Counted from the stretch's first letter, positions 196-14,247 are shown. The stretch is DNA of 64,000 bases from a virus (IMGVR_UViG_2808606549_000001:1-64000); one strand, 5' to 3'. Notes: generated from the letters alone by a model not told the origin. Translations and numbers: made by a program.

Positions 196-307
196 GTGTG
201 TTCTATAGGGGGTGCGAAAAGTTTGCTTAAGGCAGATTTCGTAAGTGGTCTCTCCCCCGTCCACCCCCTTTGACACACTTTAATGGGAGAAACTAATACG
301 GTTTTAC

Positions 308-381
308 AAGCATGGGATATGTTCGGAGTCGCGATCCGAACAGATAAGTGGACATTCCTGAGTCTACTTCTCATGCTTTTT
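308..381 (+). ncRNA. Three-way-junction leader RNA (C4/CI-like architecture) upstream of the GIY-YIG gene
   Basis: P1 308-317/369-378; P2 TGTTCGGA-GTCGCGA-TCCGAACA; P3 AGTGGAC-ATTCCTGA-GTCTACT; poly-T follows. The P3 loop is complementary to TCAGGA (388) and CAGGA (401, the SD). Confidence 0.65.
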
Positions 382-415
382 ATTATTTCAGGATAATCTA
401 CAGGAGGTTTAGATA

Positions 416-1318
416 TTGGACACTATTTGGACAACTGCTGGAATTTACTTGATTCAAAATGAAATAAATAATAAAAAATACGTTGGATCATCAAGAGATA
501 TATCAAAGCGGAAATCGAATCACGTAAAAAGACTAAATGAGAATATTCACGATAACGCACATCTTCAGTTGGCATGGAATAAATACGGTGAAGAAAATTT
601 TACTTTTAGAGTCTTAGAATATGTGTACGACATTCACGGAATGGTTGAAAGAGAACAGTATTGGATAGATAAATATGAATGTCTCGATAACAATAAAGGT
701 TATAACTTAACAAACGCCGTACCATACAGAAGACCTGATGGGTTTGCAGAACAATATAGAAGTAAAAAATTTAAATTGAAATCAGATAGAAAAAAGCCAG
801 TTCTTAAACTAGAGAAAAAAAGAAAAAGACGAGAAAGTATCCTAATAAGCGAACGAGATGCACATGATATAAAGATCAGAATAAACAACGGTGAATCTTT
901 AGTATCAATTGCTAAAATATATAACATAAATGAAAACAGAGTTAGTCAAATAAAATATGGTGAGATATTTGACAACGTATTACCTGAGCTTACGCAAATA
1001 AAGAATACGACTCGTGCCAAACCTCTTAATTCAGATCAAGTTGATCAAATAAAACGTATGCTAGACAATGAGTTTAATGATTCCGATATTGCAAAAACGA
1101 TTAATTGCAACCTGTCAGTTGTGTATAAGATAAGGTTGGGATATGCATATATTACAGATAAAAAACAAGCAAAATTAACAGACGAACAGGTAATAACTAT
1201 AAGAGCACACCTAAAAGAAGGAAAGTCAGTCAAAGAGATTTCAAACATGATGGGAATTCGACCAGGAACAATTCAAAAAATAAAAGACAATCAAGCATAT
1301 AGAGGAATAAAGATATGA
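416..1318 (+). CDS. Freestanding GIY-YIG homing endonuclease with repeated C-terminal HTH-like DNA-binding units
   Basis: GIYLIQNEINNKKYVGSS...R...H...EQYWID...GYN catalytic motif; SD CAGGAGG; TTG start. Confidence 0.9.
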   Translation: MDTIWTTAGIYLIQNEINNKKYVGSSRDISKRKSNHVKRLNENIHDNAHLQLAWNKYGEENFTFRVLEYVYDIHGMVEREQYWIDKYECLDNNKGYNLTNAVPYRRPDGFAEQYRSKKFKLKSDRKKPVLKLEKKRKRRESILISERDAHDIKIRINNGESLVSIAKIYNINENRVSQIKYGEIFDNVLPELTQIKNTTRAKPLNSDQVDQIKRMLDNEFNDSDIAKTINCNLSVVYKIRLGYAYITDKKQAKLTDEQVITIRAHLKEGKSVKEISNMMGIRPGTIQKIKDNQAYRGIKI

Positions 1319-1338
1319 GTTAGGTGCGTGAAATAAAT

Positions 1339-2259
1339 ATGCCAGGGAGAAAGCGAAAGACAGATACAACTAACAATGAAAATACACATCAAATTTGTAT
1401 AAAGTGTAAAAAAAATAAAAGTCTTAAATCTGATTACTACTCAACCGTAAGCAATCTCTATCCCAATGGTAATTATCCCGTCTGTAAGGCGTGTGTTCAA
1501 GAGAAGTTGCCACAAGAAGTTGACCCCTTAGATAAAAACTACCTGACAGTGGTTCATGGAATTCTTCTCGAATTAAACAAGCCATACCTCCATAGCCTTT
1601 GGTTGTCTTCAATCGAAGAAGCAAATCGAAGAGGTTGGAATACGTTTAACTGCTACATGAAAAATATTCAACTTAACCATAAAGATTATACATGGAAAAA
1701 TAGTGACCTGGGTGATAAGTCTTCTGAGCAATCTGATGACAATACACAAGTCAGCATTAATTTTAAGGTAACTCAAGACATTCTTATTCGTTGGGGTCAA
1801 AACTATACGGTTGATGATTATGTGAAATTAGAAGACTTCTATCACAACATGAAGAAAATGAACAAGATAGAAACCCCTCAAGAAGAAACATATCTAAAGA
1901 AACTTGCCGTAATATCTGTGAAAATGGATCAAGAATTAGAATCAGGAAACTATGGTCAGGTAAAACAACTTGGCGATCTGTTCTCTAAATACATGGCAGA
2001 CAGTAAATTTAGAGCCATGGATAAAAGTGAAGTAGATAAAACTGGAGGAATTCGTTCCTTCGGCGCTATCTTCGCAGAGTGTGAATCTGAAGGACATATT
2101 CCACCTTGGGAGCAGTTCAGAAAAATTAAAGGATTAACTCAAGACTTGGTAGACAAAACAATTATGCATATTGAGAATTTCACTCTCCGTTTAAATAAGA
2201 TCGAGCGAATGGTTGAACCTCCTTCAGATACCCCCAAGATTACTGAAGGTGATGTTTGA
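1339..2259 (+). CDS. Zn-finger protein, probable terminase small subunit
   Basis: CxxC...CxxC at the N-terminus; directly upstream of and overlapping the large terminase. Confidence 0.55.
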   Translation: MPGRKRKTDTTNNENTHQICIKCKKNKSLKSDYYSTVSNLYPNGNYPVCKACVQEKLPQEVDPLDKNYLTVVHGILLELNKPYLHSLWLSSIEEANRRGWNTFNCYMKNIQLNHKDYTWKNSDLGDKSSEQSDDNTQVSINFKVTQDILIRWGQNYTVDDYVKLEDFYHNMKKMNKIETPQEETYLKKLAVISVKMDQELESGNYGQVKQLGDLFSKYMADSKFRAMDKSEVDKTGGIRSFGAIFAECESEGHIPPWEQFRKIKGLTQDLVDKTIMHIENFTLRLNKIERMVEPPSDTPKITEGDV

Positions 2260-4037
2260 TGTCTTACAAAAACTATAGTAAACGAGACAGAGCCGATAAA
2301 GATTCTGAAGCATTTGCATCTCCAGAGAATATTGAAAGAACGCATGTTAATGAGGAAACGGTTGAAAGACTCCAACGAATTAGTGACAGATGGATTGAAT
2401 ATTGTAGTTATTTTCGTGCTTATCCAGATCACTTTCTAGATTTTATTTCTGACCCAGAATCCAAAATAAAGTTGTATTTCTATCAACGAGTTTATCTGCG
2501 TGTAATGCTTAGATATCGAAAAGTGTTTCTAACTGCTACTCGCGGTACTTCAAAAAGTTATCTCCAGACCTTAGCATTCGTCTTGAAATGCATCTTCTAC
2601 CCTAATACTAAACTGTTCATCTGCGCCCCAGGTAAAGAGCAAGCTTCCAAGATTGCAGCGGAGAAACTTGAAGATATTTTTGAACATTACCCACTTCTAC
2701 GAAACGAAGTTAAGACACTTACATCTACAAAAGATTATGTTCGTGTAGTCTTTACAAATGGCTCAAAATACGATGTTGTTCAAATGTCTGATGCATCGCG
2801 TGGCGGACGACGATATGGTGGTGCCGTAGAAGAAATCGCAGATAAGAAATTCAATGGTGATATTCTTAATAGCGTTGTAATTCCACTCATGGCGAATAAT
2901 CGAATTGCAATGAATGGTTCTGTAGATCCCAATGAACCACATAAAAGCGAAATTTATATTACAACAGCAGGTACACAGCAGCAATTCGCATATGAAAAAT
3001 TAATGGAAGTATACAATGAAATGCTGGATGGTAAGTCTGCATTTTGCTTAGGTAATTCTTATGAATTGCCTTGTGACTATGGTCAATTAGACATTGACTT
3101 TGTTGAAGCGCTAAGAGAGTCACCTACATACTCCATCATGGATTTCATGCGTGAATATGAGTCGATCTATACAGGAAGTGGATCTGATAGCCTTGTTTCA
3201 GATGATAAATTGAACAAGACCAGAGTCGTCGGTGTTGCCGAATGGGAACATTGTGGAGAGGAAAATGTTGAATATGTATTGTCTTATGACGTTTCTCGAA
3301 ATGAAGGCGACGAAAACGCCCTATCCTGTTTGGCGGTAATTAAAATTACACCAAAAAGTAATGGGACTTATACAAAAGAAGTCGTTAATTTGTTCTCACT
3401 GGAAGGCCAACATAGTTTGCTACAGGCTAAGTTCTTAAAAGAAAAAGTTAAAAACTATAGAGCAAAGATATTAGTTATCGATGCTAACGGACTAGGCGTG
3501 TCGGTTGTTGACCAACTTGTATTAGACTTGGACGATGGCAATCCTCCTTATTCGGTCGTCAATGATGAACGCTATGATAGATACAAAATGGACAACAGCA
3601 TCCCAATGGTATTTGCATTAAAGGCACAGAGCACTGAAACCAAAGAAACTCATATGGTCAATAACTTCATGCAAATATTCGCCAAAATGGATGTTGGACT
3701 ATTAAAGGTTACAAACGAAGGTATTAAAGATTTAGAAAAGAAGATGAAACACAAAATCAAGGATAGTGAGGAACTTGCAAGATTCCAACTACCCTATTTA
3801 TTGACTGATGTTCTTTGCGAAGAAATTATGAATCTTAGATATAAACAAAACGGTAACAATACTCAAGCAGAGCGTATTAGCATGAGAATAAGAAAAGATA
3901 AATTTAGTGCATTAATGTATGGCCTGTATTGGATTTACTTAGAGGAACAGAAAAATAGGATTCGGAAACGTCAAAATAACATTGATCCTCGTAAGTTTTT
4001 ACTTATGAAAAAGCCAAATGTCTATGCATCAAAGTAA
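2256..4037 (+). CDS. Terminase large subunit
   Basis: Walker A-like ATRGTSKS; YDVSR, IDANGLG and KDKFSA RNase H-like nuclease motifs. Confidence 0.9.
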   Translation: MMSYKNYSKRDRADKDSEAFASPENIERTHVNEETVERLQRISDRWIEYCSYFRAYPDHFLDFISDPESKIKLYFYQRVYLRVMLRYRKVFLTATRGTSKSYLQTLAFVLKCIFYPNTKLFICAPGKEQASKIAAEKLEDIFEHYPLLRNEVKTLTSTKDYVRVVFTNGSKYDVVQMSDASRGGRRYGGAVEEIADKKFNGDILNSVVIPLMANNRIAMNGSVDPNEPHKSEIYITTAGTQQQFAYEKLMEVYNEMLDGKSAFCLGNSYELPCDYGQLDIDFVEALRESPTYSIMDFMREYESIYTGSGSDSLVSDDKLNKTRVVGVAEWEHCGEENVEYVLSYDVSRNEGDENALSCLAVIKITPKSNGTYTKEVVNLFSLEGQHSLLQAKFLKEKVKNYRAKILVIDANGLGVSVVDQLVLDLDDGNPPYSVVNDERYDRYKMDNSIPMVFALKAQSTETKETHMVNNFMQIFAKMDVGLLKVTNEGIKDLEKKMKHKIKDSEELARFQLPYLLTDVLCEEIMNLRYKQNGNNTQAERISMRIRKDKFSALMYGLYWIYLEEQKNRIRKRQNNIDPRKFLLMKKPNVYASK

Positions 4038-4058
4038 TAAATGTGGGGAGGTGGATAA

Positions 4059-5552
4059 ATGGCAGATATTGATAATGAGGAATTAAAGAAGCAACGACAG
4101 TTTGCAGAGTTACAGAAACTTTCTCTTGTTGACCTAGAGAGGTTCCCTTATCGTACTCAGGAAATGGTTGTTGGTACATACACCAAAGACCAATTAAAAG
4201 AATATTTAAAGGCTCCCGAGCTTGAAGCAAATCAAAAAGCCTTACGTAAAATTAGTCGGTTTCTATACAATGCTTCTACACATTATAAGCGACTTGTTCA
4301 GGACTTTGCGACTATGCTGACTCTCGACCACTATTTAGAACCTTATTCGCTTAATCCTGATAAAGTGAATAAAAAGACATTTAAAACCGCATATCTTAAA
4401 GCTGTTGACGTTGTTGAAAACATGAATATTAAACATGAGATGGGAAAAGTTCAGCAATATGTCTATAGAGATGGTATTTTTTATGGATATATTCACTCAA
4501 ATAAGGAATCATTCTTTCTTCAGTACCTTGACCCTGATTTCTGCAAGATTACCTTTGTTGAAGATGGATTATTTGGATTCGCGTTCAATTTTCAATATTT
4601 CAATACATATCCTGAACGTTTAGACATGTTTCCAGATGAGTTCAAACAAATTTACAATGACAGGTTTGGCGGTAAAGGAAACAGAAAAAAGGGAAATTCA
4701 TCTACATATTGGGTTAACTTAGATATAAATAATACCATATGTATTAAAGTTGATGAAGCAACTTGGTATCCTATTCCCCCATTTGTTGGTGTATTTGAGG
4801 ATATTCTAAATATTTCTGATTTTAAAGCTTTGCAAAAAACAAGCGAAGAAATCGGAAACTATAAGTTGCTATTTCAGCAGATCCCACTTGATGAAAAAAC
4901 AGGCGACGCCAATAAGTTTTTACTTACCGAAGATTATGCGAAATTGTTCCATGATAATATCGAAGAGAATCTTCCAAAGCAAGTTGGCATCATAACGGGA
5001 CCGATGAAGGTTGAGGCTATCAATTTTGATAAGGACACAACTGATAAGAACCGCGTCATGGATTCTATTAGGCAATTCTGGTCAAATGCTGGCGTAGATC
5101 AAAAGCTATTCTCTGGTGATACATCTGGTTCAGTCGGGCTTAATGCGTCTATTCGCACAGATGAAGCCGTAGCATTTACTCTTCTGAAACAAATTGAGAG
5201 ATGGCTAAATAAATATGCCAAACAAAACATCAATGGTATATATAAGTTCAGAGTTAAGATGCCTGAAATTACGATCTTCAATCAAGAAGAATTGCGTCAA
5301 CAGCTTTTGAAAGAAGCTCAATTTGGACTTCCTGTGAAGACGAGGTTGCTGGCTGCTGGTGGAGCAAGTCCGTCTGCTGTAACCAATATGACTTTTCTTG
5401 AAAATGAAATTTTGAAATTGCAAGAATCATTTATACCTTTGTCCTCTGCTCACACTGGCGGTATGACTGAAGGTGGCGCTCCAATAAAGTCAGTTAAATC
5501 TGATGCAGGAGATAAAACCGCAGATTCTAACAGCAACGATAATCGTGCTTAA
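4059..5552 (+). CDS. Portal protein
   Basis: 497 aa directly after the terminase; SPbeta-type synteny. Confidence 0.8.
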   Translation: MADIDNEELKKQRQFAELQKLSLVDLERFPYRTQEMVVGTYTKDQLKEYLKAPELEANQKALRKISRFLYNASTHYKRLVQDFATMLTLDHYLEPYSLNPDKVNKKTFKTAYLKAVDVVENMNIKHEMGKVQQYVYRDGIFYGYIHSNKESFFLQYLDPDFCKITFVEDGLFGFAFNFQYFNTYPERLDMFPDEFKQIYNDRFGGKGNRKKGNSSTYWVNLDINNTICIKVDEATWYPIPPFVGVFEDILNISDFKALQKTSEEIGNYKLLFQQIPLDEKTGDANKFLLTEDYAKLFHDNIEENLPKQVGIITGPMKVEAINFDKDTTDKNRVMDSIRQFWSNAGVDQKLFSGDTSGSVGLNASIRTDEAVAFTLLKQIERWLNKYAKQNINGIYKFRVKMPEITIFNQEELRQQLLKEAQFGLPVKTRLLAAGGASPSAVTNMTFLENEILKLQESFIPLSSAHTGGMTEGGAPIKSVKSDAGDKTADSNSNDNRA

Positions 5553-5580
5553 CTACACCATTTGCTGAGAAGGAGGTGAT

Positions 5581-7182
5581 TTGTATTTGAAGTATACCGT
5601 TAATACATCTATCCCTATTACTTTTGAAGCAACCACACAAGAAGACTCTATATTCATGCCTGTTGTCATCGATATTGCTCATGTCGGTCAAAATCTAAAT
5701 AATTCTGTATTTTCTCGGGAGTTTCTTGAACAGATTGCCCCATCCCTCAGCAATATTCCAATTGTTGGCTATATCACATTAAACAATTATAACGAAGCAG
5801 ATTTTAACGGACACGAAGAGAAGTTAATTGTTGATGGCGATAAGATTGATTTTGATTACCAGGGAAGAGCATATGGAGTAATCCCTGAGAGCAATAATTA
5901 TAGATTCGAAGATAAGGTTTGTAATGATGGAGTAACCAGAACTTTCTTACGGTGCGATGCCCTACTGTGGAGAAAATTCCATGAGTGTACTGATATATTC
6001 GATAGAGATACCGAGAAATCACAAAGCCTTGAATTTGACCCAAAAAGTATTAAGGGTTTCTTTGGAAAAGATAAATTATTTCACTTTACTGACGCTAAAT
6101 TTGAAGCAGCATGTATCCTTGGTAATGGTGTTAGGCCAGCTCATGTAGGAAGTTCTGTAGAAAAGTTTAGTGCTAATGGACTGAAAGAGCAAATTAGCGA
6201 GATGTTTAGTGAAGTTAAAAAATATTTTGAGAAAAGTAAAGAAGTCGAAGTTTCTCAAGAAGGAGGTCAAGAAGTGGATCAAGTTTTTGAAATGTTGCAA
6301 AAGTATAACCTAACTATTGAAAATCTACAAGAAAAAGAGATTGATCATACCCAATTCTCACTTGAAGAACTTGAAGAAAAGGTTAAGTCGATGTTCAATG
6401 GACAACAGGAAACTGCAAATGAAGACGAATCTGATGCTATTCCAACTGATTTTTCGTTAACCGTTAGTCAAATGGAATGTGAACTAGATCGTGAATTGGA
6501 ATCCCTTGAATCTATTGTAGAGCAATACTGGGAAGATACTTATTCCTATCCTCGCTACTGCTATCGGGACTGTAAACCAGAACAAGGCATCGTTATTGCA
6601 ATTGACCGCAAGAACGAATACTTAGTTGGATTCAACTATTCAGTTTCTGGCGACAAATATACAATTGATGTTGCATCTGCTAAAAGGTATAAAGTTGACT
6701 ACTCTCCTATGGAGATTGAAGTTGATTCCCCTGTAGCAACTAATATGTCTAAGGATCAATATGAATTTGCGCTCCAGGCATATGAAAAACATCTTAAGGC
6801 GGAATTTGCAGTAGAAAAGGCAAAAGTTGACGAAGAGTTATCTCAACTCCAAGTTCAATTTGAACAAGTTGAAGATGAAAGAAAGCAATTTGCTGCCAAA
6901 CTTGCTGAAAAGGATGCCGAAGAGCGTCAATCACAAGAACAAGCGTTGTTTAATAGTTTCTCCGATAAGTTGACTGAAGATGAGATTGCAAGCATCAAAG
7001 AAGATAAATCTCAATTTACTATTCAGCAACTTGAAGAGAAAATGCTGCTTGCATTTGCCAAGAAAAATATCAAGTTTAGCACAACTCAAGAAGACAAACC
7101 TCTTCGTTTCGGCATCCCCGATGAAGAAGGAAAGGTCAAAAGTGATAAGTGTTGGGCTGACCTAATTGAAAGAAACAAATAA
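5581..7182 (+). CDS. Prohead protease/scaffold protein
   Basis: HVGQNLNNS...SLE...ACILG protease-like N-terminus and an acidic coiled-coil C-terminus; lies between portal and capsid. Confidence 0.7.
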   Translation: MYLKYTVNTSIPITFEATTQEDSIFMPVVIDIAHVGQNLNNSVFSREFLEQIAPSLSNIPIVGYITLNNYNEADFNGHEEKLIVDGDKIDFDYQGRAYGVIPESNNYRFEDKVCNDGVTRTFLRCDALLWRKFHECTDIFDRDTEKSQSLEFDPKSIKGFFGKDKLFHFTDAKFEAACILGNGVRPAHVGSSVEKFSANGLKEQISEMFSEVKKYFEKSKEVEVSQEGGQEVDQVFEMLQKYNLTIENLQEKEIDHTQFSLEELEEKVKSMFNGQQETANEDESDAIPTDFSLTVSQMECELDRELESLESIVEQYWEDTYSYPRYCYRDCKPEQGIVIAIDRKNEYLVGFNYSVSGDKYTIDVASAKRYKVDYSPMEIEVDSPVATNMSKDQYEFALQAYEKHLKAEFAVEKAKVDEELSQLQVQFEQVEDERKQFAAKLAEKDAEERQSQEQALFNSFSDKLTEDEIASIKEDKSQFTIQQLEEKMLLAFAKKNIKFSTTQEDKPLRFGIPDEEGKVKSDKCWADLIERNK

Positions 7183-7201
7183 TAAATAAACACATTTTAT
7201 T

Positions 7202-7226
7202 AACGCGCTTATTGGCGTGTTTTTTA
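7202..7226 (+). terminator. Intrinsic terminator-like hairpin
   Basis: AACGCGC-TTATTG-GCGTGTT followed by a T-tract. Confidence 0.5.
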
Positions 7227-7261
7227 TTTTACTTTTTAAATTCCAAGGAGGATTTACTTAA

Positions 7262-7750
7262 ATGGCTAAAGGTGCTGTTCGTCTTGACCGAGTTCATGCA
7301 ACTCGTGGAGGCAATATTCTTTCTGTAAAATCCGCAGCTGATGAGTTGCAAAATGGTTATGTTGTATTCGCTCATGCTCTATCTAGTGGTGAACGCGAAG
7401 TTTTTGACGCTATCAAACCTGCAACTGCAACAATTACGACTGATGAAGTTCTGCTGATCGCAAGCCCTGAAATTACCTATAACGCTGGTGAAACTATTTC
7501 TGATTTCACGAATGCTGCTGGTAAGGTTGCTCGCGCTATCCCGCTGAAGAATGACGACATTGTTACGATTACTGATAACGTAATCTCTGGTGCAGCCGTA
7601 GTAGGTAAATTCCTGATTCCTCAAAATGCATCTTACCAATTGGTTGTTGCAAACGACCTTTCTGGTGGCACTCGTTTTGCGGGTGAAGTCATCGAGAAAA
7701 CGACCATCTATGGTCTAGCTGCAACCGTTATTCGCGTTATCAAGGGCTAA
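7262..7750 (+). CDS. Capsid decoration/cement protein
   Basis: 162 aa, Ala/Val-rich, strong SD, immediately before the major capsid gene. Confidence 0.6.
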   Translation: MAKGAVRLDRVHATRGGNILSVKSAADELQNGYVVFAHALSSGEREVFDAIKPATATITTDEVLLIASPEITYNAGETISDFTNAAGKVARAIPLKNDDIVTITDNVISGAAVVGKFLIPQNASYQLVVANDLSGGTRFAGEVIEKTTIYGLAATVIRVIKG

Positions 7751-7782
7751 TACATAGCGACTATATAAGGAGGATAATATAA

Positions 7783-8769
7783 ATGTCTGATCGCAATAAA
7801 CTTGTCCAAATGGGCATCGATTTGTATAAAGGTTCTGTAGGAAACTTCTCCGCAGACGAAGTTGAACATAATTTCCGTAAAGCGCTAAACCAACTCACTG
7901 GTGGCGAAAAGTTTGATGCAAAAGCATTCCGCCGTAACAAAATTGCTATCTTCGAAGTAATGGAAGAAGTTCTAGATGTCGCAATCCTTGAGGGTATTGA
8001 AAATCAATTTGCTGAGTTTGTAGAATATCGCAATGTTTCTCATGGTGATAAGCCAATTTTCATGGTTGAAGATTACAAGCTGTTCCCTGTAGCCACCATT
8101 GCTTCCGGTACGAATAACATTCGTCGTCAACGTCTTGATCGTACTGGCCTGTCCGTTACGACTGGCTATAAGGGCGTCAAGATTTATGAAGAACTTGAGC
8201 GTTTCCTTGCTGGAAAGGTTGATTGGGCTAAACTTGTTGCTAAGGTACAAAAGTCTTTCAATGCTCAAATCGCTGCTGATATCTATGCTGCTCTTCAAGC
8301 TGGTTATGGCTCCCTCTCTGCTCCGTACAAGTACAGCGGTTCTTGGGATCTGACGCAATTCAACACTCTTATTTCCCACATCGAAGCCGCTACTGGCCTC
8401 TCCTCGATGGTATTCGGTACCAAACTTGCGCTTCAAAACGTTGCTCCAGCGTATGTTGCTTACAACGGTCAACTGATTGCAGATCGCAACAATGACGGTT
8501 ATTTTAAGGTTGTTGACGGTACAGTTCTTACTGAGATCAAGCAATCGCATGTTCCTGGTGGAGATACTTTTGCTATCAGCAACAAAGACATGATCATTGT
8601 CCCTAACGGCCAAGAGAAAATCATCAAGCTTGTTGTCGAAGGTGACTCTGAAATCACTGAATCTGTTGACGGTCAAAATGCCGATGAGTCGAAAGAATTC
8701 CTATTTAAGAAAAAGTATGGCGTTGGCGTAGTAGCTGCAACACGCTATGGCGCATACCTACTTCCATAA
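7783..8769 (+). CDS. Major capsid protein
   Basis: 328 aa with high-expression codon bias; size and position fit an HK97-fold capsid. Confidence 0.85.
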   Translation: MSDRNKLVQMGIDLYKGSVGNFSADEVEHNFRKALNQLTGGEKFDAKAFRRNKIAIFEVMEEVLDVAILEGIENQFAEFVEYRNVSHGDKPIFMVEDYKLFPVATIASGTNNIRRQRLDRTGLSVTTGYKGVKIYEELERFLAGKVDWAKLVAKVQKSFNAQIAADIYAALQAGYGSLSAPYKYSGSWDLTQFNTLISHIEAATGLSSMVFGTKLALQNVAPAYVAYNGQLIADRNNDGYFKVVDGTVLTEIKQSHVPGGDTFAISNKDMIIVPNGQEKIIKLVVEGDSEITESVDGQNADESKEFLFKKKYGVGVVAATRYGAYLLP

Positions 8770-8844
8770 TAGAAATAAAGTATAAAATAGAGGGTTCAAT
8801 TTATTTGTTCCCTCTTAAATCTAAATTTAAGGGAGAATGCATTA

Positions 8845-9300
8845 ATGGTTACAAAACGTAAGTTGGATGAAAATACTCTTGTCAATGTTGTCAATAACAC
8901 TAATGGCGTTCTTTACTATAAGTCTCCGCGAACTCAACGTGATTGGCGTTTTGAGAATTATGAAGATGAAGATGTCATGGAACTCCACGAACTCAGAACA
9001 ATGTCTGCTTCGTTCAAACGTTATTTTGAAGATAATTGGATTCGTATTCTTGATGATGATGTTATTGAGTATCTTCGTTTAGGTAGATACTTCGAAAAAA
9101 CAATGACGTCAGAAGAACTCGATCAGATGCTCGATAAATCCGTTGATGAGTTGAAGGAATTCTTAGATAAATCATCTAGCAATGTTAAGTCTCTTATTCT
9201 CGCAAAAGCAAGAGAGCGATATGAACAAGGTACACTTACTAATATTCATATCATCGAAATGCTTAAGGAGAAATTTGGAGCAGAGATCGATATTACTTAA
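8845..9300 (+). CDS. Phage structural/assembly protein
   Basis: Good SD; sits after the capsid gene as in SPbeta-like phages. Confidence 0.6.
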   Translation: MVTKRKLDENTLVNVVNNTNGVLYYKSPRTQRDWRFENYEDEDVMELHELRTMSASFKRYFEDNWIRILDDDVIEYLRLGRYFEKTMTSEELDQMLDKSVDELKEFLDKSSSNVKSLILAKARERYEQGTLTNIHIIEMLKEKFGAEIDIT

Positions 9301-9314
9301 TAGGAGGATGCTGA

Positions 9315-9731
9315 ATGGCAACTCCATTTACAAACGTATATGATGTAATGCTTAGTCAGTTGACAGATCCCATTTTCTTGGCGAACGACGACGATGACTC
9401 TTTGAAAAAACGATACCTGTTGAACAGTATTCCTCGATTTGCAAGGTGTAAAAAAGACCTGTCGCAGAGAAATGATATACAATTTACTGCTGATCTAAGT
9501 GATGAAGAAATGTTGATTCTTGGGACATTAATGGCCGTTGAATACTTGAAACCTCAGATATCATCACTTGAGAATATTAAGCAGTCGATGGGTTCTCGTG
9601 ATTTTAGTTTGACAAGTCAGGCTGCACACTTAGATCAACTGAGAAAACTCAGGAATGATTATAAGAAAGATGCTGACGATTTAATTGTTCAGTACACGTA
9701 CAACAATTCGAACTTGAGTGGTCTTAAATGA
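9315..9731 (+). CDS. Head-tail adaptor protein (putative)
   Basis: MATPFTNVYD...DFSLTSQAAHL; helical; synteny. Confidence 0.6.
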   Translation: MATPFTNVYDVMLSQLTDPIFLANDDDDSLKKRYLLNSIPRFARCKKDLSQRNDIQFTADLSDEEMLILGTLMAVEYLKPQISSLENIKQSMGSRDFSLTSQAAHLDQLRKLRNDYKKDADDLIVQYTYNNSNLSGLK

Positions 9732-10933
9732 GTTATAAAGATAAATACCTTGCTCGTGATAATGCTTATGGCAGTAGTATCGGAGAAACCAGAAAGAATG
9801 CAACGATATATAAAATAAATGAATCTTTTAAGGATTCTCCTTCCTATCACGAGTTGCCCATTGATGGTGTGAACACAGAAGTACGAGTAGTTACCACCGA
9901 TAAATATAACATTCAGACTCTCCTATTTAGACCATCAACTGTTGCTCATTTTGGTTCTTACGTTTCAATCGATTCCGAAGACTGGATTATTACAGAGTTG
10001 TTTTCGAATGATATTTATCCTAAAGCAACAATTAAACGATGCAATTCGATGCTTAAGTGGCTTGATGCTGATGGCTATTTGAAACAATATGCTTGTGTAT
10101 TCGAATCCCCTTCTTCTATTCAAACGGGAATCAAAGAAAATCAAATCATGACCATACCTAACGGTAAACGCATAGTGACAGTAAAGAAGGATCTTATCAC
10201 AAGCACTCTTAAGCGCGACAAGAGATTCATTCTAGATAATCATGCCTATAAAATTACCGACATTGATTCCACTACAAAAGAAGGCCTAACCGTATTATCG
10301 TTAGAGGATACCGAGATTAATTCTGCCGATAACCTAGAATTAGGAATAGCAGATTATGAAGGTAAAGTTGCTAATTTCACAGTTACTATATTAAATGGCG
10401 AAAACTTCTCAATGAAGGCTGCTTCAACAATTCAATTGCAAACAGAAGTTCGCAATAATGGCGTCTTGGTAAGTAAGAAGTTAACTTATCAATCGAGTAA
10501 TCCAAGTGTTGCCACTGTTTCCTCAAGTGGATTAGTATCATCTCTTTTGAATGGCAAAGTGGTTATTACTGCATCAATTGATGATCATCCAGATATTCAG
10601 GATACAACAACGATTACTGTTGAATTTGAAAATGCTCATAACTATTCAATAGAACTTGATAGTGCTCCAGTAGTCATCTTGAATACCTCAAAGACATTCA
10701 CAGCAGTTATCAAGGATAATTTGATCATTAATCCGAATAGAACAGTTTACTGGTATTTGTACGCTGCTGACGGAGTTGGTCCGTCTGATGTTGTGCAGAT
10801 GGTCATGAATTCAACTACTCAATGCACCCTAAAGGCGCTAAAAATAGGAAAAGCCAAATTGAAAGTTGTATTAGTCGGTAGTTTCCCAACACTCGAACAA
10901 GTATTCGATATACAAGTCAAAAGTCTTATATGA
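9728..10933 (+). CDS. Head closure/connector protein with Ig-like (Big_2) domain
   Basis: YQSSNPSVATVSSSGLV Big_2 signature; synteny. Confidence 0.65.
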   Translation: MSYKDKYLARDNAYGSSIGETRKNATIYKINESFKDSPSYHELPIDGVNTEVRVVTTDKYNIQTLLFRPSTVAHFGSYVSIDSEDWIITELFSNDIYPKATIKRCNSMLKWLDADGYLKQYACVFESPSSIQTGIKENQIMTIPNGKRIVTVKKDLITSTLKRDKRFILDNHAYKITDIDSTTKEGLTVLSLEDTEINSADNLELGIADYEGKVANFTVTILNGENFSMKAASTIQLQTEVRNNGVLVSKKLTYQSSNPSVATVSSSGLVSSLLNGKVVITASIDDHPDIQDTTTITVEFENAHNYSIELDSAPVVILNTSKTFTAVIKDNLIINPNRTVYWYLYAADGVGPSDVVQMVMNSTTQCTLKALKIGKAKLKVVLVGSFPTLEQVFDIQVKSLI

Positions 10934-10948
10934 GATATGTAACATTGT

Positions 10949-11437
10949 TTGGAGGTGAGTCGCATATCTCGATTCAAAGAGTTAGGCTATGACAAATTAA
11001 CGATTATGATGAGGTTAACAAATTCACAAAATTTGTGTAAAGCATTGTTTTATAATGACCGAAACTTTCTTGATAAACCGAATATAGCCGATCCCACCAC
11101 ATTAATATATGAATACATTTTTCCGTATAAGAAAATTCCCGATGTTCAAGTGAATGCACGTTCATTAATCACACTCAATTTCTCAAGATATAGGCCAGTT
11201 GGGGTCTCATTTAAATCTGGCATTATCGACTTCAATGTATTGATACATAAAGACAATATGAGAACAGATTACGGATGTTTGAGAACAGACTATATAGTTA
11301 GTGAAATCGATGAGTTGATTAATCAAACATATGGGTTGGGAATCGGTAAGGTAAAATTCTTTGCAATGGATGATATATTGGTGAATAGCGACTACCACGG
11401 TATAACGATTAGTTATGAAAAAGTGGATTTCAATTAG
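10949..11437 (+). CDS. Tail completion/terminator protein (putative; real start may be ATA 10964)
   Basis: Synteny; SD GGAGGTG at 10951-10957. Confidence 0.55.
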   Translation: MEVSRISRFKELGYDKLTIMMRLTNSQNLCKALFYNDRNFLDKPNIADPTTLIYEYIFPYKKIPDVQVNARSLITLNFSRYRPVGVSFKSGIIDFNVLIHKDNMRTDYGCLRTDYIVSEIDELINQTYGLGIGKVKFFAMDDILVNSDYHGITISYEKVDFN

Positions 11438-11445
11438 GTGATGTC

Positions 11446-12174
11446 ATGGATAGAGACGACATCGAATTAAAATTGCTTGCTGGGATGCCAATCGAAATTA
11501 ACGGATGTGGTCTGCTTTATACTCCCACAGTTAGAGATATTATTGAGATTGGTGAGATCAAATACAATCAGTACTTATCCGTACTATTGTTTGATAAAAG
11601 TAACGCCGATGTTGAAATTCCTGATGAAATAAGTAATTTCGAATTCTTTTTTATCAATTGTGTGTATAGCACAACTTTTAAGTCCATCGCACTAGAAGCA
11701 TTCAACTTTATATTCAGGATGAGACCTGAATTATGTGATGCCGATACATCGCTTGATCCATTCTTATATTTTGAAGATGGATCGAAAATTGATAAAAGTA
11801 ATTTTGAGTTTATTCAGGAAGTTGTTCGCATTGGACACCATGTCAAACTTCAAAAACGTGATGAAGAATATAACTTTGCCAATGAAACTGCAAGAAAGTT
11901 TATTGAAAAAGTAAAGGCATTCCGAGAGTCAGTGAAAGTAAAAAAGAAAGATGATTTGACCTTACATAGTATGATAAATGGAATGGCTTGGAAATCCCAT
12001 TCAGTAAACTTATTTAATATTTTTGAACTAACCATATATCAATTGAGATATGGGTTTTTAGCATTAAACAATATTGATGACTATCAATTCACTTTGCATG
12101 GAATCTATGCAGGAACAATTGATACTAAAAAAATAAAGTTTGATAAATTGCAATGGGCAAAAATCACTTTTTGA
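11446..12174 (+). CDS. Phage tail-region protein
   Basis: 242-aa ORF before the tail tube gene. Confidence 0.6.
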   Translation: MDRDDIELKLLAGMPIEINGCGLLYTPTVRDIIEIGEIKYNQYLSVLLFDKSNADVEIPDEISNFEFFFINCVYSTTFKSIALEAFNFIFRMRPELCDADTSLDPFLYFEDGSKIDKSNFEFIQEVVRIGHHVKLQKRDEEYNFANETARKFIEKVKAFRESVKVKKKDDLTLHSMINGMAWKSHSVNLFNIFELTIYQLRYGFLALNNIDDYQFTLHGIYAGTIDTKKIKFDKLQWAKITF

Positions 12175-12195
12175 AATTATAGGAGGAATACATAA

Positions 12196-12987
12196 ATGTC
12201 AGCTCCGAATCGTTGGGCAATTAAAGAATCAGGGGAAGTTACTTTCTACGACCTCGTAACAGGTAAGGCTAAGACCACGCTTCGCACACTTAAAACATCA
12301 AAACTTTCCACGACTGGCGCTACGACGTACAGTCGCGGTGGGCGCGGTAATGTAAAGCTGGTAGGGTTTTCCAGTGACCGCGAAGCAAGACTCGAACTGA
12401 CCGACGCTATCTTCGACAACGCGGCCATCTCCATGCTTACTGGTAACGATTTAACTACGGGAGTTAAAAATGTTAATCGCAATGAACTTGTCACTGTTAA
12501 CTCTAACTCCGCTACGCTATCTAAGACTCCAGTCGGAAACCTTATCAGTGTTTACAAGGTAAATCCCGATGGAACCAATGGTACAGAATTAACTAAGAAG
12601 GCTGGATCTTCAGTGGCTACTGGCGAATATGACATCTCGGCAAAGGTCTTGTCATTTTTCTCAGGTGATCTACCTAATGGTTCTAAAGTTCGAGTGTACT
12701 ATGTTGTTGCCACTGACAATACAGCAAAGAATATCAAAGTCACATCAGATCAGTTTGGCAAAACCTTTAAAGTTACAATTGACGTTCTCGTTCGTGATGA
12801 ATATACCAAAGCAGATTATGCGGGCATCTACACCATTCCAAATGCAAAATTCGAAGATAATTTCGACTTCGATTTTAGTAGTGACGGCGACCCTGCGGTT
12901 CTGGCGCTTAATCTCGAAATCCTTAAGAGTCCAACTTCTAATGACATGTGGGAACTTACAATCTACGACGATGCACTAATTCTATAA
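12196..12987 (+). CDS. Major tail tube protein
   Basis: Strong SD; RGGRGN...DGDPAV motifs; Thr/Ser-rich; synteny. Confidence 0.75.
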   Translation: MSAPNRWAIKESGEVTFYDLVTGKAKTTLRTLKTSKLSTTGATTYSRGGRGNVKLVGFSSDREARLELTDAIFDNAAISMLTGNDLTTGVKNVNRNELVTVNSNSATLSKTPVGNLISVYKVNPDGTNGTELTKKAGSSVATGEYDISAKVLSFFSGDLPNGSKVRVYYVVATDNTAKNIKVTSDQFGKTFKVTIDVLVRDEYTKADYAGIYTIPNAKFEDNFDFDFSSDGDPAVLALNLEILKSPTSNDMWELTIYDDALIL

Positions 12988-13001
12988 ATTTATTTTTACA
13001 T

Positions 13002-13070
13002 AACAAGGCTAGATTTGGGCTTGCAATCCAGATCGAAATCGGCGACTCACACGCCGCTGCCTTGTTTTTT
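13002..13070 (+). ncRNA. Three-way-junction leader RNA (C4/CI-like architecture) upstream of the HNH gene
   Basis: P1 AACAAGGC/GCCTTGTT; P2 GATTTGGG-CTTGCAA-TCCAGATC; P3 CGGCG-ACTCACA-CGCCG; poly-T follows. The P3 loop is complementary to TGTGAG at 13075 and 13088 (the SD). Confidence 0.65.
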
Positions 13071-13103
13071 ATATTGTGAGAACATTTTGTGAGGTGTAAA
13101 AGT

Positions 13104-14129
13104 TTGAGAAAAAAGATAACGTTTGAACTTGCAAAATCTAGTTTTGCTGATAGAAATTTAATTTTACTAGAAGATAATTATTTGGATGCGAAAACCAAGA
13201 TGAGATTTCTTTGTCCATTGCATCCTGAGTATGAGCAGAAAATAAACTATGGTAATTTTAGTCAGGGTTACGGATGTACTTGGTGTTCAAATAAGGTTCG
13301 TGCGAACATAGAGATTGTAAAAAATGAGTTCTTAAAACGTGGACTTAAATGTTTGTCGGACGTATATACTAATGAAAATAAGCAGTTAGAATACATATGC
13401 GACAATCATCCTGATTTAATCCAGCTAATTAGTTTCAGGTCAATTAAAAATGGTGTGGGTTGCAGGGAATGCTCTAAAGAAAAATTGAGATCTAGATTTC
13501 AATTAGATTTTGAATTTGTTAAAAATGATTTATTGAAAAATGGTTATGTACTTTTAGAAGATACATATCTAAATGCCAGAACGAAAATGAGATACATTTG
13601 CGAATTTCACCCTTTTGAAATTCAACTATCCAATTATAGCAATATGAAAAAGAAGTCAGCTTGCAGATATTGTGGATTAGAAAAACTTTCAGGAGAAAAT
13701 TGCTTTTATTGGCAAGGAGGAATTACGAAGTTATCACTATATCTTCGAAGTTGTATAAAAAACTGGTCAATTGAAGTAATGAGAGATAATGATTTTAAAT
13801 GTAAAATAACAGGTCGAAAAGGCATACTGGAAGTTCATCATTTAAAGAATTTTAGCGACATACTAAAAGAATCACTTACAGAACTTGGTCTACCAATTAG
13901 ACGAGAAGTTGGAGATTATTCAAAAGATGAGCTTTACCGACTAGAAAATTTATTTGTAAGAAAACATACTTTGGATACAGGGGTTCCATTATTGAAAGAA
14001 ATTCATGACCTATTTCATAAGACATATGGTCGATTTAATAACACACCAGAACAATTCTATGAATTCAAAGAAAGATATCTTTCAGGGGAATTCTCTATTG
14101 TTCCTCAAAAGGAAGCGGTTTTTATTTGA
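13104..14129 (+). CDS. Freestanding HNH-type homing endonuclease with three Zn-ribbon repeats
   Basis: Three repeats of Y..A.TKMR..C..H...C..C; C-terminal LEVHHL...H..FH..YG..NNT.EQF; TTG start after SD GAGGTG. Confidence 0.8.
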   Translation: MRKKITFELAKSSFADRNLILLEDNYLDAKTKMRFLCPLHPEYEQKINYGNFSQGYGCTWCSNKVRANIEIVKNEFLKRGLKCLSDVYTNENKQLEYICDNHPDLIQLISFRSIKNGVGCRECSKEKLRSRFQLDFEFVKNDLLKNGYVLLEDTYLNARTKMRYICEFHPFEIQLSNYSNMKKKSACRYCGLEKLSGENCFYWQGGITKLSLYLRSCIKNWSIEVMRDNDFKCKITGRKGILEVHHLKNFSDILKESLTELGLPIRREVGDYSKDELYRLENLFVRKHTLDTGVPLLKEIHDLFHKTYGRFNNTPEQFYEFKERYLSGEFSIVPQKEAVFI

Positions 14130-14180
14130 CCAATTTTTTGTGTAATAGCTAAACACAAAAATAATACTCACACGCCACTT

Positions 14181-14212
14181 AAGACGAAGACTAATTACCT
14201 TCGTCTTTTTTT
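14181..14212 (+). terminator. Intrinsic terminator
   Basis: AAGACGAAG-N8-CTTCGTCTT followed by a T-tract. Confidence 0.7.
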
Positions 14213-14247
14213 ATGTCTTTTATCAATTTAATACGGGAGAGATTAAT

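Follow-up and report, generated by a model that had tools for sequence, protein, structure and literature searches.

The Rfam family int-alpA (RF02996) comprises RNAs that lie next to integrase or alpA genes in Proteobacteria, as its name and description state. In c4 RNA, with which the CI RNA of phage P4 is grouped as a like system, two distinct loops (boxes a' and b') each face a different target box, and the RNA is released from its precursor by RNase P. In one review, c4 of phages P1 and P7 is described as a small structured RNA from the transcript of its own target, with loops complementary to repeated targets; it covers the ribosome-binding site (RBS) of a harmful gene, and different phages use different codes, resulting in heteroimmunity (PMC12197685). 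Expression of the homing endonucleases of phage T4 (I-TevI, I-TevII, I-TevIII, segB and mobE) is controlled by RNA structures that sequester the RBS and by terminators (PMC2988022). Here we analysed a 64,000-nt stretch of viral DNA (IMGVR_UViG_2808606549_000001:1-64000, called the window), in which two leaders with a predicted RNA fold in common precede the genes of a GIY-YIG homing endonuclease (locus 1) and of an unrelated endonuclease-like protein (locus 2). In each leader an unpaired segment, the guide, is complementary to two sites downstream of the fold, target 1 and target 2, of which the latter lies on the Shine-Dalgarno sequence of the nuclease gene (Table 1).

The arrangement resembles c4, which works alike: a small structured RNA faces repeated, loop-complementary targets over an RBS (PMC12197685). 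It differs from c4 in that a single guide is set against two copies of one box, and its 3' end looks terminator-made. As described for T4, the Shine-Dalgarno sequence of a nuclease gene would be hidden in transcripts coming from upstream and terminators would trim transcript levels; the inhibitory strand of T4, however, is part of a local hairpin around the RBS, whereas the guide described here is carried by a separate conserved fold 40-90 nt upstream (PMC2988022). A second target, and a design common to unrelated nucleases, also set the present leaders apart from T4. The original prediction, made from the window alone, had suggested a check against C4 and related motifs. At E<=10 the C4 model (RF01695) matched neither the 127.5-kb genome nor the two leader regions, and int-alpA turned out to be the nearest family, with locus 2 just above its threshold.

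Guides and doubled targets before nuclease genes

Two sites complementary to one guide were present in all of the 30 non-redundant elements that we collected, and in each of them the second site ended at most 20 nt before an open start codon. The elements carry 18 distinct guide sequences, each with its own matching target pair. For 28 elements, the longest complement between guide and downstream sequence had a mean length of 9.2 nt, compared with 5.7 nt for shuffled downstream sequence and 5.5 nt for same-sense matches. Among 17 representatives with distinct guides, the own pair scored 16.2 on average and 272 swapped pairs scored 10.1. The covariation takes in letters outside the Shine-Dalgarno sequence, across the 18 guide classes. 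The stems P1 and P2 also show compensatory change: 7 of 12 pairs were altered on both sides, a number reached in none of 500 shuffles. That loop and targets change together, each locus having its own code, and that the second copy occupies the RBS had been claimed for the two window loci; both claims hold throughout the set, with two matched sites in 30/30 elements and the second at the RBS in every one, so that the examination of homologues for loop-target co-variation came out in favour of the observation.

The elements were obtained without reference to their targets. A DNA similarity search of deposited phages gave no match for either window leader or for a leader of the junction-strand type (see below). 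Loci from IMG/VR were gathered via flanking proteins and then searched by structure-only tools blind to the downstream targets, namely a Python descriptor, the models R1 (built from one relative), R2 (four relatives of the second architecture) and R3 (built from locus-1-type elements), a pattern scan for P1 arms, and RF02996 on whole contigs. Of the 20 stretches from the pattern scan, four (L054, L055, L063 and L065) proved not to be the element and were removed, together with five identical duplicates; L190 and the second element of L045 were added later. For the relatives, a simple rule was used to assign start codons. Most of the 30 elements come from one group of related metagenomic phages, and the independent units are the 18 guide classes. 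Model R1 matched locus 1 at 30.4 bits (E 1.6e-4) and did not find locus 2, which R3 matched at 23 bits (E 0.012); L190 was missed by R3. The E-values of R1-R3 are rough because calibration was short. Neither R2 nor RF02996 gave a match in Alicyclobacillus phage KKP_3916, and no cultured carrier was found. A functional descriptor (terminator, exact complement of at least 7 nt, second site) gave 4 matches in the present genome, compared with 0-7 in ten shuffles, so it yielded no excess over chance; it misses the window loci because their duplexes have only 6 bp.

The guide is displayed in three ways. Architecture A is a three-way junction whose P3 loop serves as guide; both window loci, L034, two elements in L045, L044 and L190 belong here. 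In the 22 elements of architecture B, which have P1 and P2, the guide is the unpaired strand that runs from P2 to the 3' arm of P1. Architecture C consists of a plain terminator hairpin that displays the guide in its loop; its one example, L012, stands before a homologue (36% identity) of the second nuclease in the window, and the guide cores are almost alike. The three-way junction originally predicted is thus common to both window loci but is not a constant feature, given that relatives show architectures B and C.

At the window loci themselves, the coordinates, the motifs and the like folds of the original prediction were all present. The minimum-free-energy folds of 300-385 and 12995-13075 were exactly the proposed three-way junctions, with z-scores of -5.16 (locus 1) and -4.00 (locus 2); for each, 0 of 200 shuffles folded as well. 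The doubled loop match was likewise recovered, the two sites being 13 nt apart and the second one on the Shine-Dalgarno sequence, 9-10 nt before the TTG. When the P3 loop plus or minus 1 nt was compared with the 38-nt leader, doubled complementarity was reached by 243 of 50000 shuffled leaders at locus 1 and by 241 of 50000 at locus 2 (~0.5%). Taken by themselves, the window loci have a modest doubled complementarity that is moderately unlikely. Both P1 stems (10 and 8 pairs) contain G+C and are followed by a T-run (TTTTTATT and TTTTTTAT), which is the make-up of an intrinsic terminator. We infer from this terminator-like end that transcription terminates here. A simple terminator scan omits both stems, as their 'loop' is a branched interior of 50 nt.

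The open reading frame (ORF) directly downstream encodes homing-endonuclease-type domains in 30/30 elements. These belong to several unrelated families, in line with the original claim of a leader before unrelated endonucleases: GIY-YIG, phrog_12131, phrog_559/681, EndoVII/HNH-like zinc modules, NUMOD3 and one weak T7-endonuclease-I-like domain. The weakest assignments are those of L190 (Phage_endo_I 3e-6, below the Pfam cut-off) and of the window's second gene (PHROG families only). The set with the guide core CTCCACACAT recurs, leader and targets alike, before nucleases of three unrelated families (L048/L061, L050 and L064/L052), which argues against the repeats being operators for the DNA-binding domain of the nuclease itself. 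From such sequence comparisons the leader seems to be a fixed expression pad where nucleases are exchanged. In L048, L050, L052, L061 and L064, leaders and targets that are all but identical run, right at the start codon, into different ORFs (phrog_12131, phrog_681 and GIY-YIG).

Many elements occupy one site, upstream of nuclease-terS-terL; locus 2, L012, L045:5946 and L190 lie elsewhere. At the position of locus 2, the nuclease-free relatives L013 and L015 have only a plain terminator after the structural gene. In the window such a terminator follows the nuclease gene, so that leader and nuclease of locus 2 look like one insertion, and the hairpin at 14181..14213 is probably the resident terminator that nuclease-free relatives carry directly after the structural gene. 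The picture at the terS site is different: near-identical leaders stand before different nuclease families, and a P1-like hairpin is kept without a nuclease, as in L027 (1840-1900), where the nuclease-free site has a plain hairpin from the same P1 arms as the junction-strand type. The proposal that the leader travels with the nuclease is therefore right only in part: it agrees with locus 2, and less well with the terS site.

int-alpA RNAs and the palindromic P2 loops

RF02996 matched locus 2 at 36.2 bits, a narrow margin above the gathering score of 35.8, with E-values of 4e-6 for a 301-nt region and 4.1e-7 for the genome. This match arose when the small region was scanned; a default filtered Rfam scan of the whole window gave nothing. 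At locus 1 there was no match to RF02996 at E<=10 in 100-500, and no other Rfam family matched locus 1 either. No Rfam model detected the junction-strand and hairpin variants. In a second phage, G003, there is one int-alpA match (37.2 bits) beside one element of the junction-strand type. The likeness of locus 2 to int-alpA lies in the three-stem junction, in the stem followed by a U-run, in the variable P3 loop, and in the segments CTAG, CGAAAT and CTG, which align with the consensus UA / GAAAA / CU. Locus 1 has the common architecture, TA as J1, a GA-rich J2 (GATA) and the target geometry, and it lacks J3. The present elements differ from int-alpA in being located in large Bacillota-type siphophages, before homing endonuclease genes and among terminase, portal and virion genes; they are not adjacent to integrase or alpA genes.

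Pairing between loop and RBS is also indicated for bacterial int-alpA. We fetched 120 stretches of bacterial genomes with a pattern derived from the consensus, 38 of which have the closing stem and J1. In these 38 loci the score of the P3 loop against the downstream sequence was 9.95, compared with 7.29 for shuffles. The targets usually lie 7-9 nt and 20-22 nt after P1, the second one on the Shine-Dalgarno sequence, and loop/target pairs include CCTTCA/TGAAGG, ACTTCA/TGAAGT, CCCTG/CAGGG, CAGCCT/AGGCTG and CCCTC/GAGGG. The targets of the window start at +10/+23 (locus 1) and +9/+22 (locus 2) after P1, which fits this geometry. By eye, many of the bacterial int-alpA loci (L066-L185) expose the second target as the loop of a short downstream hairpin, such as GCAC...GTGC around TTGAAGGA; the P3 loop would in that case meet it in a loop-loop kiss. 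Weinberg et al. (2017, PMC5737381), who defined int-alpA, do not discuss the motif in their main text, which has no occurrence of 'alpA'. We found no published account of such a leader or of loop/RBS pairing in int-alpA, in a search that covered this main text and few subscription journals.

The P2 loops have a second regularity. Several contain a self-complementary hexamer flanked by purine (TCGCGA, TTGCAA, TCATGA or TAGCTA), and other elements have AGCT or GGCC. The loop consensus NTYGCRA of the original prediction is found in both window loops, but it is better described as a palindrome. Palindromes of at least 6 nt occurred in 7 of 13 distinct P2 loops, with 0.5 expected, and none of 20000 random sets reached this number; the same test gave no palindromes of this length in P3 loops. 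Closely related leaders differ by a swap of TAGCTA and TCATGA. A pair of elements is present in three genomes or contigs (the window, G003 and the L045 contig), and in all three the palindromes differ between the two, as do the guides. Some bacterial int-alpA P2 loops read GACG.

Kissing-loop dimerisation hairpins are known from human immunodeficiency virus type 1 (the HIV-1 dimer initiation site, DIS) and from Moloney murine leukaemia virus (MoMuLV), which has a GACG tetraloop. By analogy with their self-complementary loops, the purine-flanked P2 palindromes suggest that two copies of the RNA may kiss loop-to-loop, giving two guides for two targets. We extend this, tentatively and with more doubt than belief, to the proposal that int-alpA-like RNAs could be one broad family of programmable, self-dimerising antisense regulators of mobile elements across phyla, in which the kissing dimer would let two guides clamp the tandem targets cooperatively. 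Dimerisation would explain the specificity of guides of only 6 bp, the doubling of the targets at a fixed 12-14-nt spacing (three-way-junction type) and the differing palindromes per genome. It is at odds with L012, which has two targets and no P2, and with L061, in which the palindrome is broken; the four-letter palindromes in G+C-rich bacterial loops are weak evidence for it. If the dimer exists, it would be a rare natural functional RNA homodimer.

A putative silencer and the competing explanations

We consider it fairly probable that the leader is an antisense guide embedded in a terminator which occludes the RBS of the nuclease gene, making it a portable translation silencer. A short structured leader, closed by a stem and a T-run, would display one unpaired guide in the P3 loop, in the junction strand or in the terminator loop. 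The guide would pair with two complementary copies downstream: target 1 shortly after the T-run and target 2 on the Shine-Dalgarno sequence. Pairing at target 2 would occlude the RBS and leave the nuclease translationally silent. Silencing might operate in read-through transcripts (cis), via an abundant terminated RNA of ~60-75 nt (trans), or in both ways, and the terminator itself would limit transcription into the nuclease gene. Each cassette would have its own guide/target code. Such a mechanism would work like that of P1 c4 RNA and end like the RBS-sequestering hairpins of T4 (PMC12197685, PMC2988022). The parts of the proposal differ in strength. The comparisons argue strongly for pairing of guide and targets; that this pairing represses translation, in cis or in trans, we infer less firmly, and the same applies to the purpose of target 1.

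Pairing at the level of RNA is best argued by position. In all three architectures the inverted copy falls, without exception, within unpaired sequence of the covarying fold and on the coding strand, the second direct copy is always the RBS, and a common leader stands before unrelated nucleases; together these strongly indicate an RNA-level contact. The wobble count does not separate selection on RNA from selection on DNA, because allowing G.U extends the duplexes no more than allowing A.C mismatches does (533 vs 549 nt summed).

This count is one of several results that weigh against the silencer. The window duplexes are just 6 bp, and in a test of the whole ~50-nt interior against the leaders of other elements, in which 31% and 16% of the cross pairs reached loci 1 and 2, the two loci were not significant alone. 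The nuclease-free L040 (3864-3930) has P1 arms like those of locus 1, and P2, directly before terS with no clear targets, and in the likewise nuclease-free L016 (3895-3960) the loop CCTCTCCC of a plain hairpin matches the terS Shine-Dalgarno sequence GGGAGA once; the element is thus not strictly tied to nucleases. Two more nuclease-like genes of the same genome, on the opposite strand and outside the window, have no guide leader. The genes downstream of 9 bacterial int-alpA loci matched no Pfam family and are not recognisable nucleases. Finally, of the two targets it is usually target 1 that matches the guide over the greater length and more perfectly. In cis it should therefore out-compete the Shine-Dalgarno copy, and a decoy or a switch fits this observation at least as well as a pure silencer does.

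A two-state switch is the main rival to the silencer, and we regard it as unlikely. Its guide, an anti-Shine-Dalgarno sequence, would pair with target 1 in the ON state and with target 2 in the OFF state, the balance being set by a protein, a ligand or a second RNA. Duplicated sequences competing for one partner are the classic layout of an expression platform, and target 1 is both nearer to the guide and usually the better match. The junction nucleotides (J1 TA, J2 GAAA(A), J3 CT) are kept from bacterial int-alpA to the phage elements, which is typical of a binding pocket. Yet neither a ligand nor a protein partner is indicated, both targets are kept in the variants without a three-way junction (L012 and the junction-strand type), and a default ON state would be unexpected for a toxic nuclease.

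If the motif, with its one inverted and two direct copies, were instead a set of DNA sites for a protein and the fold just a terminator, the 18 motifs would need 18 protein specificities. A precedent for such sites is I-TevI, which is documented to repress itself through an operator overlying its promoter (PMC2988022), and the count of G.U against A.C does not favour pairing in RNA. The unpaired position of the inverted copy in a covarying RNA, on the coding strand of three architectures, the constant overlap of the second direct copy with the Shine-Dalgarno sequence and the identical motif sets before unrelated nuclease families nevertheless make DNA sites very improbable. The leader might also be an RNA guide for the adjacent nuclease, which would cleave DNA at loop-matching sites, by analogy with the HEARO/omega RNA of IscB; in its favour, a structured RNA with a variable loop adjoins nuclease genes. 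This is more improbable still, considering that the partner nucleases have several unrelated folds, that matched sites were found nowhere but in the leader of the element itself, over the RBS there, that guides go down to 6 nt, and that bacterial int-alpA loci precede proteins not recognisable as nucleases. That the leaders are ordinary terminators of the upstream operon, with a chance match between pyrimidine-rich loops and purine-rich Shine-Dalgarno sequences, agrees with the stem and T-run at the end of both elements, with the start of locus 2 just after a structural gene and with the moderate significance of the window loci alone, but can be all but dismissed in view of the covariation beyond Shine-Dalgarno letters in 18 guide classes, the two sites in 30/30 elements and the plain terminators, free of guide/target features, of nuclease-free relatives.

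Two further candidates were ruled out. Attenuation with targets that prevent termination is not feasible, as the targets are downstream of the T-run and not yet transcribed when termination is decided. A packaging RNA or cos/pac signal does not agree with the location of locus 2 and other copies far from terminase genes.

If the silencer is real, it would provide a testable mechanism for int-alpA, an orphan Rfam family whose function is so far unknown. It would also mean that unrelated free-standing homing endonucleases in late operons of Gram-positive-type phages are tamed by a common, re-codable module, unlike the ad hoc hairpins of T4. The at least 18 natural orthogonal guide/target codes, possibly with orthogonal dimerisation loops, would constitute a toolkit of translational repressors of ~60-75 nt.

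Genome setting and further features

The portal protein has its closest deposited relatives in Alicyclobacillus phage KKP_3916 (46%), Brevibacillus phage Sundance and large Bacillus phages; judged by these relatives, the virus is a large phage of Bacillota type, and it is siphophage-like. The genes between the two nucleases include virion genes, and locus 2 begins 15 nt after a structural gene. A search of the window for tRNA and tmRNA found none. Of the gene labels in the original prediction, GIY-YIG was confirmed (PF01541 4e-10) and HNH was not established. The product of the second gene has three treble-clef-like repeats and, by eye, a C-terminal EVHH...N...H stretch resembling a His-Me finger; Pfam gave no HNH match for it and a weak match to CapR alone. 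An HNH identity is plausible on the basis of the PHROG families and this motif. Both nuclease genes, like those of several relatives, start with TTG, which is consistent with deliberately weak initiation.

Table 1. Features of the window, of the two leader loci and of related genes elsewhere in the genome
Feature	Position	Strand	Details
Window	first 64 kb of 127.5-kb virus record		36.6% G+C
Promoter-like pair	270..299	+	TTGACA 270-275, 18-nt spacer, TAATAC 294-299; by eye, putative
Locus 1 leader RNA	308..381	+	three-way junction; terminator-like T-run 377-381
Locus 1 P1	308-317/369-378		10 pairs; J1 TA
Locus 1 P2	320-327/335-342		7-nt loop GTCGCGA 328-334 containing palindrome TCGCGA
Locus 1 linker J2	343-346		GATA; no J3
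Locus 1 P3	347-353/362-368
Locus 1 guide (P3 loop)	354..361	+	ATTCCTGA
Locus 1 target 1	388..393	+	TCAGGA; 6 Watson-Crick pairs with guide; 10 nt after P1
Locus 1 target 2	401..407	+	CAGGAGG; Shine-Dalgarno; 5 Watson-Crick and one G.U pair to guide; TTG at 416
GIY-YIG homing endonuclease gene	416..1318	+	300 aa, TTG start, C-terminal helix-turn-helix (HTH) domains; PF01541 4e-10, phrog_7168 5.6e-27
Small-terminase-like gene	1324-2259		phrog_3314
Large terminase gene	2256-4037
Portal gene	4059-5552
Locus 2 leader RNA	13002..13071	+	three-way junction closed by P1, then T-run
Locus 2 P1	13002-13009/13059-13066		8 pairs; J1 TA, J3 CT
Locus 2 P2	13012-13019/13027-13034		loop CTTGCAA 13020-13026 containing palindrome TTGCAA
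Locus 2 linker J2	between P2 and P3		GAAAT
Locus 2 P3	13040-13044/13052-13056
Locus 2 guide (P3 loop)	13045..13051	+	ACTCACA
Locus 2 target 1	13075..13080	+	TGTGAG; 6 Watson-Crick pairs; 9 nt after P1
Locus 2 target 2	13088..13094	+	TGTGAGG; overlaps Shine-Dalgarno GAGGTG 13091-13096; TTG at 13104
Endonuclease-like gene	13104..14129	+	341 aa, TTG start; phrog_681 'endonuclease' 1.3e-21, phrog_5104 1.3e-22
11-nt exact direct repeat	14166..14176	+	ACTCACACGCC; copies 13045-13055 (guide and start of P3 3' arm); by eye
Plain hairpin terminator	14181..14213	+	3' of nuclease gene
Second GIY-YIG ORF	G000 116296-117142	-
phrog_681-like ORF	G000 103690-105016	-	match has one in-frame TAA

The predicted transcription start of the promoter-like pair, at about 306-308, coincides with the first base of P1 of locus 1. 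A promoter scan omitted this pair because its rule demands T at position 6 of the second hexamer. Between a terminator at 167-189 and the promoter-like pair lies a G/C-rich stretch (205-268) with the complementary ends GGGGGTG ... CACCCCC. Given its place close to the terminase genes and to the beginning of the record, this stretch may be a packaging signal or a further structured RNA. The repeat ACTCACACGCC at 14166-14176 is located in the 3' untranslated region of the second nuclease gene, just upstream of the plain terminator, and could be an insertion scar or a second copy of the guide at the 3' end of the mRNA.

Related genomes showed interruptions in other genes. About 1.1 kb is inserted in the large terminase of L038 (4971-8057), the terL match of L019, L020, L021 and L023 is split, with an other-frame overlap near codon 50, and ~320 nt is inserted in the homologue of the structural gene 12196-12987 in L014 (4648-4967). 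These split matches may represent introns, inteins or further nuclease insertions.

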